This document shows positions 1-36,946 of a stretch of DNA of 36,947 nucleotides, one piece after another. Position numbers and translations under genes: made by a program. How positions within the stretch are numbered: the first letter of the stretch is position 1; every line of letters starts with the position of its first letter. The stretch is taken from IMG/VR virus record IMGVR_UViG_3300012346_000313, positions 1-36,947 of that record. One strand, written 5' to 3'. The notes below the pieces were generated by a model that did no database searches, was not told where the DNA came from, and was given only the letters and a program-made list of their open reading frames with translations. The DNA is from a virus. Its lineage: Duplodnaviria; Caudoviricetes.

Positions 1-55
1 GAAAAGAGAATAGGTATTTATGGGCGGCCTGAATATATTTGGGAAATTTGCTAAC
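1..55. repeat. Terminal direct repeat, left copy (circular overlap)
   Basis: 1-55 is identical to 36893-36947 (GAAAAGAGAATAGG...TTTGCTAAC). Confidence 0.97.
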
Positions 56-142
56 GTTTCGTGTATGAGCAGTGGCACTTGTACACACTTTCAAATTAGC
101 ACTAAACTATCCGTGCCATTGCTTATACACGGTGTTATACGC
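47..142 (-). mobile_element. attC-like recombination hairpin 1
   Basis: TTTGCTAAC (47-55), an 18-bp stem 61-78/113-130 with two G.T wobbles on the + strand, then GTTATACGC (134-142). This is the AAC...GTT architecture of integron attC sites. Confidence 0.75.
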
Positions 143-528
143 TTTTATATTTTAAATTATGGAATCAATTATAGAAAGACAAAAAATAGACTGCAATTGT
201 AATGACTGTAAGCACATGGTTAGAAATCAAGAAAAATTTAAACAATCACTTGAATTTCAACAAAAAATGCAGTTTGATTATTTTACAACCATAAAAAACA
301 AACTCATTAAAAAAGCAAATGAGTATAAAGATAGATGGTATGATTTAGAAAACTGGGATAGGCTTTTAACCAAAGCCGAAAATATGAAATTCCAATTTGA
401 TAAGTCAGCAGCAAGTATCAATTTTGGAACTTGCTCAAAACTTAGCAGAGAAGTATCATTTATCCCCAATATATGTCAATTAGAAACTCAGGAATGTTTT
501 TTGCATCGCAGGGACTAATTGCGTATAA
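55..528. mobile_element. Integron-like gene cassette 1 (474 bp)
   Basis: GTTATACGC (134-142) and GCGTATAAC (521-529) are exact reverse complements flanking a single ORF. The left junction is at the TAA|C stop of the upstream gene. Confidence 0.7.
159..518 (+). CDS. Cys-rich hypothetical protein (cassette 1 cargo)
   Basis: 119-aa ORF with CNCNDC near the N-terminus and three more Cys near the C-terminus; possible metal binding. Confidence 0.75.
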   Translation: MESIIERQKIDCNCNDCKHMVRNQEKFKQSLEFQQKMQFDYFTTIKNKLIKKANEYKDRWYDLENWDRLLTKAENMKFQFDKSAASINFGTCSKLSREVSFIPNICQLETQECFLHRRD

Positions 529-578
529 CTGAGAGATAAAATCCGTTTTTTTAATGGATTTTATCGGGAGTTAGCAAA
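521..578. other. Short attC-like/recipient hairpin
   Basis: AAC-tgaga-GATAAAATCC (535-544), loop, GGATTTTATC (556-565)-ggga-GTTAGCAAA (570-578). The last motif is complementary to TTTGCTAAC (47-55). Confidence 0.6.
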
Positions 579-26524: not shown

Positions 26525-27157
26525 ATGAAAAAAATTTTATTAATTTCTTTGGCTATCCTGTTAATTGCAGGGGCTTACGTCGGTGGCTGCTCACGTGGCG
26601 GTTACAAACAAGGGTTAAAAGACGGCAAACTTATCGAGCGGTTGAAACTCGGTAAAGTATGGGATTCGATCCAGTTTGCCGAAACGAAGAAAAAGATGGA
26701 CGGGTTCAAACTTACAAACGACGCTTTACAGCGTGAAATAAGCACGTATAACAAAGCCATTAACGAAACAAGGGTATACTACCAAAAGAAGTACAACGAC
26801 CTTAAAAACATGACCGGAAGGGATATAGACAGCATTTACAGATTATATGCTGGTGATTCTTTGCAAGCGGTTCAAAACTTTGTCAGTTTGGATGAATGTA
26901 AACAGGTTTCACGGATGCAGGACTTGGAAATAAATACTCTAAAGAAAAAAGACCTGAACAGCCAGCAAATAATTAATGATTTATACGCTTCGATTGAAAA
27001 GGATAAAAACGAAACTATTGAACTTCGTGACCAGGTTTCACAGTTAACAACAGATTTAACAGCGACAACGGAAAAGATGAAACGTAGAACTAAGCAAAGA
27101 AACATAACTTGGCTCGGGGTTGGGGTTTTGGTGGCTGGGTTTATTTTATTGCGTTAA
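26525..27157 (+). CDS. Spanin-like protein (signal/lipobox, coiled coil, C-terminal TM)
   Basis: MKKILLISLAILLIAGAYVGG-C; long heptads; WLGVGVLVAGFILLR C-terminus. Confidence 0.6.
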   Translation: MKKILLISLAILLIAGAYVGGCSRGGYKQGLKDGKLIERLKLGKVWDSIQFAETKKKMDGFKLTNDALQREISTYNKAINETRVYYQKKYNDLKNMTGRDIDSIYRLYAGDSLQAVQNFVSLDECKQVSRMQDLEINTLKKKDLNSQQIINDLYASIEKDKNETIELRDQVSQLTTDLTATTEKMKRRTKQRNITWLGVGVLVAGFILLR

Positions 27158-27254
27158 CGGCTGGCGGTATGGTTTAGTAAAGCCTGACCACTACCGCCAG
27201 ATTGAAACACAAAAGTTAATTCAGGCTTTATTAACTATACCGTTTGTTAGCGTT
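27151..27254 (-). mobile_element. attC-like recombination hairpin 2
   Basis: GCGTTAAC (27151-27158), stem 27164-27187/27221-27243 with G.T wobbles and one bulged T on the + strand, then GTTAGCGTT (27246-27254). Confidence 0.75.
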
Positions 27255-27487
27255 TCGTTTTGAGCGTTGGCGGTACAAAATTCAAACAAAATGGCAGTAG
27301 TAAAAGCAGTATTTAAAGCAGGAGCAAAATTAGAGGAATGTAGATTTGCCCCTTACGAAGGTGATATTGTATTTATAATTGATGATGACATTCTTATACA
27401 TGAATATGAAATAATTGAGGACTTCGATGTCGAATATTATAAAGAAATATTTGAAATTATTGAGAGCGTTGGCTAAATGAACGCTAA
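27158..27487. mobile_element. Integron-like gene cassette 2 (330 bp)
   Basis: GTTAGCGTT (27246-27254) and AACGCTAAC (27480-27488) are exact reverse complements around one ORF. The left junction is at the TAA|C stop of the spanin-like gene. Confidence 0.7.
27291..27476 (+). CDS. Small acidic protein (cassette 2 cargo)
   Basis: 61 aa from ATG 27291; 16 Asp/Glu versus 5 Lys/Arg. Confidence 0.65.
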   Translation: MAVVKAVFKAGAKLEECRFAPYEGDIVFIIDDDILIHEYEIIEDFDVEYYKEIFEIIESVG

Positions 27488-27516
27488 CTATATTATAACA
27501 GTAATTTGTACGGCAC

Positions 27517-27684
27517 ATGAAAACATTTAAACCAGTGATCAGAATAAGAATAAGCCAGAAAATGAAGTTAAAACTTTTGGAGATAAAAAACAATACAGGT
27601 CAATCGGTTAATTCTGTTATTCGGGTGGCTATTGAAAAAGAATTAGTAAGGCGAAAAGGGATGTATAATTTAACACCATTTTAA
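27517..27684 (+). CDS. Ribbon-helix-helix (Arc/CopG-like) regulator (55 aa, not in ORF track)
   Basis: KPVIRIRISQKMKLKLLEIKNNTGQSVNSVIRVAIEKEL fits the strand-helix-GxS-helix pattern. Confidence 0.75.
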   Translation: MKTFKPVIRIRISQKMKLKLLEIKNNTGQSVNSVIRVAIEKELVRRKGMYNLTPF

Positions 27685-27687
27685 AAC

Positions 27688-27801
27688 CGTGCCAAAGTAT
27701 GAAAAATAAAAGTGATATGTGTATTTAAAAATGTGGGAATATATCATCGGTTCAAAAGAATTTCGTATTATTATAAAGTCTAATTTTGGCGGGTAAACAT
27801 T
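27688..27801 (+). promoter_or_regulatory. Promoter module B
   Basis: Same boxes and spacing as module A; TAATTTTG at 27781; central core inverted. Confidence 0.8.
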
Positions 27802-29969: not shown

Positions 29970-31361
29970 ATGACAAAACAAGCAAGTTTATTTCAGGATA
30001 AAGTTGAATTTATCTATGTAGAATCGGTTATTGGTTCAGGTTACGAAAATCAGGTTGCTGAATTAGCAATAATTGATAAGGTGGCTTACAGAGCAGCCCG
30101 TAAAAATATGCAAATTCATTCGGCTATAATTCTAAAAATTAACGATGAGTTTAGCGGGTTTTTTACCTTCCAGGTTAATCACGAAGTTGGCGAATTTTGC
30201 CTTTTACAATCGGCAATGAGTTTGGATAAAAAAGACAAGGAAATTTATAGTAAAATGGTGGGTAAAATAATTGAACAAAACACCTTTGGTTATCCTATGA
30301 TAATGACCGTATCAACTAAACATGATTTGGAAAATCCAAAAGTTTTCGAGGCAATCGGTTTTAAAACTTACTTAAATCTTAGTGGTTTTGCTTACATGGT
30401 TTACGGCAAATTAGAGGATGTTAGAATGAAAATTCTGGCTCATATCACAATGACAAACGTCTGGAATACAACTAAAGGTGATTGGTTACGATTAAAAGCT
30501 GAATGGAATGATAAAATAGAGGCTGCGGGTGAAAAGTACAATATTGCTAATCCTAAATTTGCATCACGTGAAGGATGTTGGCAGGGTGAAAGCGGTTTTT
30601 CAAACGTTGTTTTAACCGAAAGAAGTATTGAGGCTGGCGAAATAAAAGTTGATAAAGGGCGGTCACACAATGGCAATGCGTCGGTACTTGATCCGGTGGC
30701 TTGTGAGGTTATATTAAGATTCTTTATGCCAACTGAAGGAAAACGGGTTTACAATCCTTTCGGGGGTGGAGTCCAGTTTGGATTTATAACTGGTGCTTAT
30801 GGTTATGAATATATTTCAAGCGAAATAAGGCAAAATCAATGCGACGTTAATAATGCACTTTGCCAGGATTTCGGGAGTGCTAAATGGATTAAAAGCGATT
30901 CGGCAACCTATGAACCTGATGGAATGTTTGACCTTGTGTTTACTTGTCCACCTTATTACAGAGTTGAAAAGTACATTGATTATGATGGAATTATTCCGGC
31001 GGGTGAAATTAACTCTTTATCGACGTACGAACAATTTCGTGATACTTTATTTGCAGGCTATAAAATTGCATTAAATCATTTAAACGATAATTGTTTTTTT
31101 GTTGTAATGACAGGTGATAGTAGGGATAAAAACGGTTCTTATTATTGTTCTGAAAGTGAAACGGAGTTGTTTTTTAAAGAGCAAGGATTATCGGTTTATA
31201 ATAAGATAATTTATTTAGAGTGCGAATTTACAAGGCTTGCTCAGGCAAAAAAAACACTTAACTATCGTAAATTTCCTAAACGTGAGCAAAAAATAATAGT
31301 TGCTTATAAGGGTAAAATTGATAAAATAAAGGAGTTATACAAGTCAGTTGGGCGGTTGTAA
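29970..31361 (+). CDS. DNA amino-methyltransferase with N-terminal GNAT-like domain
   Basis: Motif I YNPFGGG, motif IV TCPPYY. The N-terminal ~150 aa has a GNAT-like pattern (DEFSGFFTF...VFEAIGF). Confidence 0.78.
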   Translation: MTKQASLFQDKVEFIYVESVIGSGYENQVAELAIIDKVAYRAARKNMQIHSAIILKINDEFSGFFTFQVNHEVGEFCLLQSAMSLDKKDKEIYSKMVGKIIEQNTFGYPMIMTVSTKHDLENPKVFEAIGFKTYLNLSGFAYMVYGKLEDVRMKILAHITMTNVWNTTKGDWLRLKAEWNDKIEAAGEKYNIANPKFASREGCWQGESGFSNVVLTERSIEAGEIKVDKGRSHNGNASVLDPVACEVILRFFMPTEGKRVYNPFGGGVQFGFITGAYGYEYISSEIRQNQCDVNNALCQDFGSAKWIKSDSATYEPDGMFDLVFTCPPYYRVEKYIDYDGIIPAGEINSLSTYEQFRDTLFAGYKIALNHLNDNCFFVVMTGDSRDKNGSYYCSESETELFFKEQGLSVYNKIIYLECEFTRLAQAKKTLNYRKFPKREQKIIVAYKGKIDKIKELYKSVGRL

Positions 31362-32239
31362 TGGAATTTAAGTCAGCATATAAACAACTCAATCGGAAAG
31401 TTAATACATGGTGTAAATATACCAAGCGGTTAGATACTTATGGAATGGGTTGCCAACACGGTTGTAAATATTGCTACGCTAAAGGGTTGTTAAATTTCAG
31501 AGGAAAGTGGAATGAATACGAACCTTTAAAATCTAATTTAATGGACATTGTAAAAAAGATTAAATTACTTCATTCGGGTTGTGTTGTTCGGATGGGTTCA
31601 ATGACTGATTGTTTTCAACCAATGGAAATTGAAAACAGGATAACTTATCAAACCATAAAATTATTGAATCATTACAAAATACATTATTTAATTATTACTA
31701 AAAGTAACCTTGTTTCAAAAGATGAATACCTGCAAATTTATGATAAAAATTTAGCACACTTTCAAATTTCAATTACTTCAACGGATAATGAAATTTCATC
31801 AAAATATGAAAAAGCGTCACAACCAAGTGAACGAATAAAATCAGTTGAAAAACTCTTTTCACTTGGATTTGATGTTTCAATAAGATTAAGTCCTTTTATC
31901 GAGCAGTTTATTGACTTTGACATACTTAATAATATCAGTTGCGATAAGATACTAATTGAGTTTTTAAAGGTTAATTACTTTGTTAAAAATTCATTCGATA
32001 TTGACTATTCAGATTGTATGGTTAATTGCGGTGGATATAAGCATTTGCCACTATTTAAGAAGTTGCAATTAATCAAAAAGGTTAATGGATTTAAAGAGGT
32101 TTCGGTGGGTGAATATGTCAAAGAACATCACGAATATTTTAAACAAAATATTAATTACAATAAAAATGACTGTTGTAATTTAAAACTAAATTTTCGACCA
32201 ATTTATAAACAATTAGAGTTATGGAATCAATCGAATTAA
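31361..32239 (+). CDS. Radical SAM protein (SplB-like)
   Basis: GCQHGCKYCYA (CxxxCxxC), GSMTDCFQP, IITKS, IRLSPFI. Confidence 0.9.
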   Translation: MEFKSAYKQLNRKVNTWCKYTKRLDTYGMGCQHGCKYCYAKGLLNFRGKWNEYEPLKSNLMDIVKKIKLLHSGCVVRMGSMTDCFQPMEIENRITYQTIKLLNHYKIHYLIITKSNLVSKDEYLQIYDKNLAHFQISITSTDNEISSKYEKASQPSERIKSVEKLFSLGFDVSIRLSPFIEQFIDFDILNNISCDKILIEFLKVNYFVKNSFDIDYSDCMVNCGGYKHLPLFKKLQLIKKVNGFKEVSVGEYVKEHHEYFKQNINYNKNDCCNLKLNFRPIYKQLELWNQSN

Positions 32240-32475
32240 TCAAAAAAGAATACCAGGATTCTTTAATTAAGTTTCCTAATTTCAACTCACCTCACGAAGG
32301 TTATGCGGTCATTTTAGAGGAACTGGACGAACTCTGGGAACAGGTTAAAAAGGTCAAATACCCGGTCATTGATCGGGAGTGCGAAGCAATGAAAAAAGAG
32401 GCTATACAGGTGGGTGCAATGGCTGTAAAGTTCATTGAAAGTTTAGAACATTTCAAAGAGTGGAAAAGCAGTTGA
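32221..32475 (+). CDS. MazG-like NTP pyrophosphohydrolase
   Basis: HEGYAVILEELDELW...KEAIQVGAMA. Confidence 0.7.
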   Translation: MESIELIKKEYQDSLIKFPNFNSPHEGYAVILEELDELWEQVKKVKYPVIDRECEAMKKEAIQVGAMAVKFIESLEHFKEWKSS

Positions 32476-32515
32476 AACTATTTTAATTTAGACTAATTAT
32501 TTATAACGAAAAAAC

Positions 32516-32546
32516 TTGCATATTAATAATATTAATACTAATTTAG
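32516..32546 (+). promoter_or_regulatory. Probable promoter
   Basis: TTG-N20-TAATTTAG. Confidence 0.55.
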
Positions 32547-32561
32547 CAAAAAATTAATATT

Positions 32562-33071
32562 ATGAAAAAGTGTTCAAAGTGTAACCAAATTAAAGAAAGG
32601 ACGGACTTTTATAACTATGATAAAAGTAGGGATGGTGTTGGATATTATTGTAAAGAATGCCATAAAGAAATTACTAAAAATAATTATGTAAAACATCCAA
32701 GAATATTACTATCTCCAGAACAAAAATTAAAAAGGAAAAGAGAATATGATAAAGCCTATAATAAAAAATGTGATTGGTCTAAATATTATGGTAAAAGAAA
32801 TATTTATAGGTTAAAATTTCCTGAAATTGTTTTAGCTGAACAAGCTACATCTAAAATAAAACCGAAAAAGGGATTAGATAAACATCACTGGAGTTATAAT
32901 AAAGAACATTGGATGGATATTATTTTCTTGGGTAAATCCATTCACAGAATTGCACACAGAAATATGATTTACGATCAGGAACGAATGATGTTTAGGACAA
33001 CGGCGGGTATTTTATTAGATTCTAAAATTGACCATTTAAATTTTATTGATGGATTAAATAAGTTAGAATGA
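32562..33071 (+). CDS. Zinc-finger/HNH-like endonuclease
   Basis: CSKC...CKEC N-terminus; HHWSY...HRIAH C-terminus. Confidence 0.65.
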   Translation: MKKCSKCNQIKERTDFYNYDKSRDGVGYYCKECHKEITKNNYVKHPRILLSPEQKLKRKREYDKAYNKKCDWSKYYGKRNIYRLKFPEIVLAEQATSKIKPKKGLDKHHWSYNKEHWMDIIFLGKSIHRIAHRNMIYDQERMMFRTTAGILLDSKIDHLNFIDGLNKLE

Positions 33072-33091
33072 ATATAAATTACGTTCATCTA

Positions 33092-35644: not shown

Positions 35645-36280
35645 ATGAAACGAAGGTTAAAATTAGAAAACGGTCAAAGGGTTGGTAAATTTACAGTGCT
35701 TTATGAGGTTGAAAGGCTTTCACTTCCTTGTGGTCAAAAAAACAGGGCTTTTCGTTGCCTTTGTGATTGTGGAAATGAAAAAATAGTCAGATTATCGCAC
35801 TTAACGAGGGGTAAAATACAAAGTTGCGGACACTGTAACGGAATAAATGGATTCGTAGGAACAAAAATTCACAACGTATGGCGGGGTATGTTGAACAGAG
35901 TAAAAGATTCTTATTTTCAATCACACCTTTACAACCAAAAAGGAATAATAGTTTGCCCTGAATGGAAATCATTTAAAGTATTCAAGGAATGGGCTTATAA
36001 CAATGGATTTAATGATTCTTTATTTATCGATAGAATTGATAACTTAAAAGGTTATTATCCTGAAAATTGCAGGTTTACAACTTCGCAAATAAACTGTTCA
36101 AATAGGGATAATACTTTTATGGTTAATTTCAATAATGAATTGATACCATTTACGATTTTGTTAGATAAATTGGATAAAAGAAAACACGCCGGAGCTATAA
36201 GAGGAAGAATAAAAAGAGGGTGGAATCATCAATTAGCTGTTATGTTACCGATTAGGGAAGGAAACTATTACAGGAAATAA
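35645..36280 (+). CDS. HNH-type homing endonuclease
   Basis: CLCDCG, SCGHC, GIIVCPEW, IDRIDNLKGYYPENCRF. Confidence 0.85.
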   Translation: MKRRLKLENGQRVGKFTVLYEVERLSLPCGQKNRAFRCLCDCGNEKIVRLSHLTRGKIQSCGHCNGINGFVGTKIHNVWRGMLNRVKDSYFQSHLYNQKGIIVCPEWKSFKVFKEWAYNNGFNDSLFIDRIDNLKGYYPENCRFTTSQINCSNRDNTFMVNFNNELIPFTILLDKLDKRKHAGAIRGRIKRGWNHQLAVMLPIREGNYYRK

Positions 36281-36622: not shown

Positions 36623-36946
36623 ATGTACGATTTATTCACTAATGCAGAAGGAGCTTTTTCAGATCAAAGTTTTTATAACACCACGCACGAAAAAGGCGAA
36701 ACGCTTGAGGTATTCCACCGGAAAGCGGACAGGCAAGATATGAAAGTATTAAATGCTTTTTCAATTTTTTTAAAATTATCACCAGAAGAATGTTGGAAAC
36801 TATTTTATTTTCAGGAAAAAGGAGTTCCATTAACAAGTATTCGCCGGTCAATAACGAACCTAACAAAAGCCGGTAAGCTGGTTAAGACCAACGAAAAGAG
36901 AATAGGTATTTATGGGCGGCCTGAATATATTTGGGAAATTTGCTAA
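36623..36946 (+). CDS. Winged-helix-like DNA-binding protein
   Basis: LTSIRRSITNLTKAGKLVKT...GRPEYIW. Confidence 0.6.
   Translation: MYDLFTNAEGAFSDQSFYNTTHEKGETLEVFHRKADRQDMKVLNAFSIFLKLSPEECWKLFYFQEKGVPLTSIRRSITNLTKAGKLVKTNEKRIGIYGRPEYIWEIC

Follow-up and report, generated by a model that had tools for sequence, protein, structure and literature searches.

The window, the whole stretch of DNA analysed, comprises an entire 36.9-kb phage record (36,947 nt) with direct terminal repeats. Between a resident gene and a ribbon-helix-helix gene it carries a short unit, cassette B, and a second unit of the same design, cassette A, lies at its start (Table 1). An earlier note on this DNA had described a hairpin, a cargo ORF, complementary ends and a TAA-C junction at cassette B, with AAC-N7/8-GTATG on the left and TATAC-N5-GTT on the right common to both hairpins, and all of these features are present in the sequence. 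Following the convention for integrons, we set the ends of cassette B at AA|C; what the data themselves show is an exchange somewhere within TAAC. The cores are complementary at 9/9 nt in each of the two cassettes and bound a single gene, which supports the proposal that these are attC-type cassettes. The gene upstream of cassette A connects to it across the 55-nt terminal overlap.

Table 1. Features of sites A and B in the window.
Feature	Position	Strand	Remarks
Resident gene at site B, 210 aa	26525..27157	+	Its TAA stop doubles as the TAA of the left AAC core; followed by C
Cassette B, 330-bp mobile unit	27158..27487	+	Hairpin, 61-aa gene, complementary ends
attC-like hairpin B	27156..27248	+	AAC-N8-GTATG (27167-27171)...TATAC (27236-27240)-N5-GTT; bottom-strand geometry on the + strand
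Cassette B 5' core	27246..27254	+	GTTAGCGTT
Cargo gene B	27291..27476	+	61-aa acidic protein, family-less
Cassette B 3' core	27480..27488	+	AACGCTAAC; exact complement of the 5' core GTTAGCGTT
attI-like right half-site	27486..27499	+	AAC-TATAT-TATAAC; found behind other DNA in an independent contig
Ribbon-helix-helix (Arc-like) gene	27517..27684	+	After the half-site; weak PHROG and Pfam matches
Cassette A, 474-bp unit	55..528	+	Same design as cassette B
Hairpin A	53..136	+
Cassette A 5' core	134..142	+
Cargo gene A	159..518	+
Cassette A 3' core	521..529	+
Resident gene at site A (phrog_9069)	36623..36946	+	Supplies the left core of cassette A with its TAA, across the circular junction

Cargo B had no match in PHROG or Pfam and none at >=0.9 in the Atlas, and two homologues of 90% and 75% identity were found. 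Scans of viral contigs with the upstream gene, cargo B or the repressor as queries returned no relatives, nor did a metagenome scan with cargo B. By blastn, positions 27140-27500 gave only short matches to cultured phages, and scans for promoters and terminators near site B yielded hits at chance level only. Elsewhere in the window, a large DNA methyltransferase (phrog_498) is followed by a cysteine-motif protein that by eye resembles a radical SAM enzyme (29970-32239); the two may form a DNA modification pair. There are also three HNH or endonuclease-VII-like genes (1029-1739, 32562-33071, 35645-36280); in contigs of an independent sequencing run, X1, the stretch 32468-33091 is missing, as would be expected if relatives lack a mobile endonuclease.

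A geometric detector found exactly two hairpins in the window, both on the + strand and none on the - strand. Their profile-plus-pairing scores are 91 and 71, against a maximum of 28 in 300 kb of Markov-shuffled DNA, and an Rfam search of the window returned no family. The hairpins display the hallmarks of attC sites, namely R and L boxes, an unpaired spacer and a bias in the folding strand. The predicted minimum-energy fold of 27151-27254 has a z of -3.2; in the predicted fold of hairpin B, the left arm pairs with an internal repeat rather than with the right arm; this fold is not the att-type stem, a point against the cassette reading. On the strand carrying AAC-N7/8, G-T pairs outnumber A-C pairs by 35 to 6 (99 of 119 pattern matches, strand-neutral filter). 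These figures were used instead of a count of 274 G-T against 31 A-C, which was set aside because it was biased by the scoring. The excess of G-T pairs therefore equates the AAC-N7/8 strand with the bottom strand of attC. In attC itself, IntI reads extrahelical G and T bases and its I2 region contacts the extrahelical G (accessible text of PMC3053210); in our hairpin alignment (A1) no conserved bulge was apparent by eye in the L box.

Six loci related to site B were fetched, of which four reached the stop codon of the upstream gene. Two of these four (L375 and L377) are empty, TAAC being followed directly by TCTTT-TATATC without a cassette, so that the absence of empty sites, which the earlier note had named as grounds for refutation, does not apply. 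The other two, L376 with at least 3 cassettes and L378, carry cassettes different from that of the window, which bears out repeated capture at one site. Thus site B holds 0, 1 or at least 3 cassettes across relatives. The suggestion that the resident gene is left intact was likewise borne out, the 5-6 orthologues of the upstream gene being 210 aa long in every case. In run X1, one contig matches 27320-27488 (169 nt of cargo B, 3 differences) and departs from the window sequence after 27488, whilst another contains 27484-27523 behind different DNA; the exchange point therefore falls within TAAC. Run X1 contains just 6% of the words and so reveals relatives rather than the window phage; a joint that bypasses the cassette did not turn up in it.

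The empty alleles have a different right half-site, lack a 254-bp repressor segment and rejoin the window at 27743; the window allele may therefore be a chimera made at the att site, and its own exact empty form was not seen among the site B loci reached, nor was a cassette circle observed. The Arc-like repressor segment (27489-27742) may itself be mobile as a module with its hinge at the docking site, since L375 and L377 lack it here and in X1 it is preceded by other DNA. An exact 17-nt search with the site-B half-site gave 47 viral matches, and a hairpin lay upstream in none of 25 distinct contexts; these matches look unrelated and were set aside. At site A, the one relative (L381, 40% identity) of the upstream gene ends without TAAC and without a cassette and was rejected as an empty site because it is too distant to count. 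From the alleles at site B, the 330-bp unit is, as far as sequence comparison can establish, a real, exchangeable gene cassette in a reusable orphan docking site.

Differences of the same kind separate isolates of a cultured phage. Seven of ten records of Polaribacter phage Freya were compared, with Freya_10 as the reference, and all six other isolates differ from it by whole units with junctions at AAC. Isolates 1, 2, 5 and 9 lack blocks ending at the docking-site AAC, and the block missing from isolate 8 is bounded by two hairpin AACs. Isolate 6 carries an extra unit of 472 bp next to the docking site, absent from Freya_10. The junctions lie at record ends in isolates 1, 2 and 8 and are internal in 5, 6 and 9; identity outside these units is 99.99-100% in the three isolates checked. 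The isolation paper gives genome sizes of 44.0-48.9 kb and lists an integrase, and the words 'integron' and 'cassette' are absent from its main text (PMC8776804). In the Freya_6 unit (L442, 462-934), an entire 70-aa ORF lies inside the hairpin loop. Polaribacter phage P12002L carries the hairpin family in two arrays with methyltransferase cassettes; methyltransferase and Mom-like genes lie in both (L435, 30900-32900 and 37300-40950), and its hairpins are more numerous than the accessible part of the published description highlights.

Close homologues of hairpin B occur in five loci (L069, L072, L086, L112 and L119), and those of hairpin A are up to 97% identical. For one strict pattern, we estimate matches in ~440 viral stretches. 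The hairpin test was passed by 94 of 126 loci, and these 94 yielded 124 distinct cassettes with near-perfect 9-nt complementary ends. Phage arrays reach 21 hairpins (scored scan of 53 regions of 20 kb from 50 records). The system had been presented as one of phages; this did not hold, as long arrays of the same hairpins are also found on Bacteroidota chromosomes. A bacterial-genome scan pattern was rejected as mostly chance: even under a loose pairing test, only 19 matches in 121 stretches held up. We infer the host of the window phage from its hairpin family only. Among host cassettes, L294 (G002:C2) and L198 (9381-10725) contain, from their translations, what look like toxin-antitoxin pairs, each bounded by hairpins of its own as in sedentary integrons. 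In two bacterial genomes (G098:C33:372900-387800 and G110:C10:30500-34600), hairpins and a short recombinase share a strand with phage-type polarity, and these may be prophages.

A search of the window record for a tyrosine recombinase (PF00589) gave no match, and the enzyme would therefore act in trans. Among the 50 phage records, 15 encode a 265-300-aa Xer-like recombinase with same-strand hairpins just upstream (two of the 15 are near-identical, their gene broken), and cultured phages encoding the enzyme are Polaribacter phage Freya, Cellulophaga phage Ingeline and Polaribacter phage Leef. Phage loci have cassettes, a hairpin-less site and the recombinase in that order on a single strand, and in 9 of them a hairpin-less AAC-N5-TATATA closes the array ~40-130 nt before the recombinase, as expected of an attI. 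Just upstream of the recombinase, L262 and L263 contain tiny cassettes in which hardly any sequence separates the cores. The earlier note had proposed a search for the cognate integrase in the host; across 61 sampled genomes of the host phylum, hairpins were found in 21, the recombinase family in 20 and both in 11. The hairpin count is a lower bound, 66 candidates having been scored per genome, and a recombinase match at E 1e-60 is absent in 10 of the 21 hairpin-positive genomes. All five host genomes first tested contain the family, and in three of these it was directly seen next to arrays, which it precedes, or at contig ends. Where host loci were read closely, the enzyme is directed towards its array, and phage and host copies unite in one alignment (A4). 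Five host recombinases (L248, L249, L250, L251, L253) have 1-2 extra N-terminal segments of ~90 aa with a W...W.IP motif, which phage copies lack. The segment is reminiscent of a HARP-like strand-annealing domain; Pfam gave no match to that domain in L248.

The consensus AAC-N5-TATATA comes from 31 hairpin-less array ends. By the half-site matrix, site B ranks first of 208 TAAC sites on the + strand with a score of 7.2, the runner-up reaching 2.2. The empty alleles obtain 6.3; site A, a weak attI match, comes 22nd (-2.4). Were the enzyme instead a classical IntI of some host, complete with its I2 helix and acting at non-specific attG sites, the window units would be ordinary SALINs. Such integrases do insert cassettes at GWT sites and SALINs are common (accessible text of 10.1101/2022.09.11.507474), IntI1 recombined one of two tested P12002L sites (PMC9892861, in part), and the target at site A matches attI weakly. 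However, the P12002L site that best fits the hairpin geometry, attC1, was not recombined by IntI1 according to the same source, and site B is the top attI-like site in the genome. Moreover, none of the enzymes in the 50 phage records or 5 host genomes reached the integron-integrase cut-off (TIGR02249, 265 bits). The model was matched below it in 18 of the 50 phage records, and array-linked enzymes score ~100-120 bits per segment with the middle of the model skipped (~186-236 in hosts). Against VchIntIA (2A3V), query residues 179-213 span 180-261 and the alignment breaks across the I2 region, so the array-adjacent enzyme lacks it; its closest solved structures are archaeal XerA, and its sequence resembles XerA and XerD. 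We consider the involvement of a classical IntI very improbable.

Gene orientation distinguishes phage from host arrays. In 120 of 124 phage cassettes the AAC-N7/8 (folding) strand carries the longer ORF, whereas in 35 of 36 host-array cassettes the ORF is on the opposite strand. With the AAC-N7/8 strand as the bottom-strand equivalent, host cassettes are thus classical, 35/36 obeying the attC rule of a gene on the top strand with attC behind it, whilst phage cassettes do not obey it and are reversed, with the hairpin before the gene. The better-folding strand in phages is the mRNA strand. This, together with the start of the next ORF inside some long hairpins and the missing recombinase of the window phage, could be read as a sign that the hairpins are RNA elements (for processing, stability or translation) and that the modules are shuffled by homologous or illegitimate recombination at short conserved boxes. 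However, the same hairpins accompany genes on the opposite strand in host arrays, junctions at AAC share only 3-4 bases in several cases, the cassette ends are complementary across the gene, which matters only in a circle, and the Rfam search gave no match. An RNA role with passive shuffling is thus very unlikely to account for the data.

The cargo of cassette A was also found outside cassettes. An adjacent hairpin is absent in 22 of its 27 homologues (32-68% identity), lies after the gene only in 3 and flanks it on both sides in two near-duplicate loci. Cargo homologues without the boundaries had been put forward as evidence against the system; for cassette A they exist in the letter, and the allele evidence at site B stands. 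The pattern suggests that the cargo shifts between resident and cassette states.

We also examined where arrays begin, using the 45 array starts away from region edges; these starts are uncertain, some perhaps being decayed cassette ends. Exact in-frame stops were found at 9 of the 45 against a background of 2.9% (7-fold), and 24 of the 45 lay within 15 nt of a stop against 6.4% (8-fold). Of the 65 window ORFs, 4 end in TAA-C, two with cassettes and two empty, the empty ones having low half-site scores. The proposed AACT-N5-ATAA target is present at both downstream junctions, and its overall frequency is near chance (7 occurrences in the window where 3.8 are expected, and at least 7 in 9 of 100 shuffles). 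Hence the earlier claim that TAAC stop codons are targeted as a rule fails; enrichment at gene ends is seen, but a stop codon is neither needed nor sufficient. A very improbable reading, that the system recognises TAAC stop codons (AACT-N5-ATAA) as such and so spares resident genes, takes in the exact stops at both window cassettes and the enrichment at array starts, but 36 of the 45 starts, which may be degenerate cassette ends, are not exact stops, empty TAA-C stops with low half-site scores persist in the window, its motif is near chance, and what is conserved is a signal beyond the gene, downstream of AAC. The target is better described as an attI-like half-site, AAC-N5-TATATA, and the link with stop codons most likely reflects selection for gene-sparing insertions together with attI-like sites at gene ends rather than stop recognition.

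Taken together, these data make it probable that the 330-bp unit belongs, as an exchangeable cassette, to an integron-like system shared by Bacteroidota and their phages, and that an external Xer-like tyrosine recombinase placed it at an orphan attI-like site. The sense strand would fold as single-stranded DNA, the two cores of the cassette closing the hairpin. Integron integrases cut at AA|C; the same cut is predicted here, after which the enzyme would fuse the circle with the double-stranded half-site AAC-N5-TATATA. Its donor could be a host chromosomal copy or a co-infecting phage. The cargo would be transcribed from the phage's own operon, because the hairpin precedes the gene and the gene is on the folding strand. 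A more tentative idea, which we regard as conceivable but rather unlikely, is that cassettes are born in phages when hairpin sites landing at AAC on either side of an ordinary gene make a cassette. This would account for the reversal of the cargo, for genes that start within hairpins, for the clustering near the ends of genes and for the mostly cassette-free homologues of cargo A, and, if true, would mean a second, IntI-independent integron lineage and a cassette origin that can be watched in a cultured phage.

If the assignment of the enzyme holds, IntI-based surveys miss a cassette system that operates in about a third of the genomes sampled from the host phylum and in many of their phages; the accessible text of IntegronFinder 2 names Salinibacter ruber alone as having a complete integron in Bacteroidetes proper (PMC9024848). 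The I2 helix would then be dispensable for the recombination of folded hairpins, and phages would gain a fast shuffler of accessory genes, with methyltransferases among the cargo. Freya on Polaribacter offers a cultured phage-host pair in which the mechanism, and possibly the origin of cassettes, is directly testable. What the window adds is that recombinase-less phages retain reusable docking sites.

The earlier note had put the system forward as a candidate for an undescribed one; one phage example proves to be in print as a CALIN: Qi et al. (2023) report CALINs in phages, including Polaribacter phage P12002L (PMC9892861, in part). The bottom strand of its attC1 has the AAC-N7...N5-GTT geometry and is the gene strand, as here; the accessible text of that paper differs in presenting the sites in one Polaribacter phage and without the enzyme. 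In the literature searched, with most subscription papers outside reach, we did not find an I2-less recombinase described with these arrays. SALINs, inserted at attG (Loot et al., 10.1101/2022.09.11.507474, in part), share with the window units solitary cassettes far from an integrase, an enzyme acting in trans and a double-stranded site; they use IntI and a 3-nt GWT motif. Site A fits them well, a single attC cassette without a nearby integrase being the case of the window. Unlike SALINs, site B strongly matches the hairpin family's own attI and is reused by different cassettes. The 'reverse integrons' of Treponema reportedly have IntI, the integrase lying upstream of classical cassettes and co-oriented with the cassette genes. 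In that orientation they are said to resemble the Bacteroidota host arrays, whereas the phages have their integrase downstream, with cargo that is reversed with respect to the hairpin.

Integrons themselves (IntI, attI and attC; class 1 and sedentary chromosomal) are also close: they likewise have a tyrosine recombinase next to a hairpin-less docking site and a row of single-gene cassettes, complementary AAC/GTT cores and one strand that folds better; the classical gene orientation is common to them and to the Bacteroidota host arrays. They differ in that IntI has the I2 insertion, which the recombinase of this hairpin family lacks, in that the family's spacers are 7-9 and 5 nt with no conserved extrahelical G (by eye), and in that phage genes lie on the folding strand, running towards attI and the recombinase. 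Judged by these sequence features, the system works like an integron, while its enzyme falls outside the IntI family.
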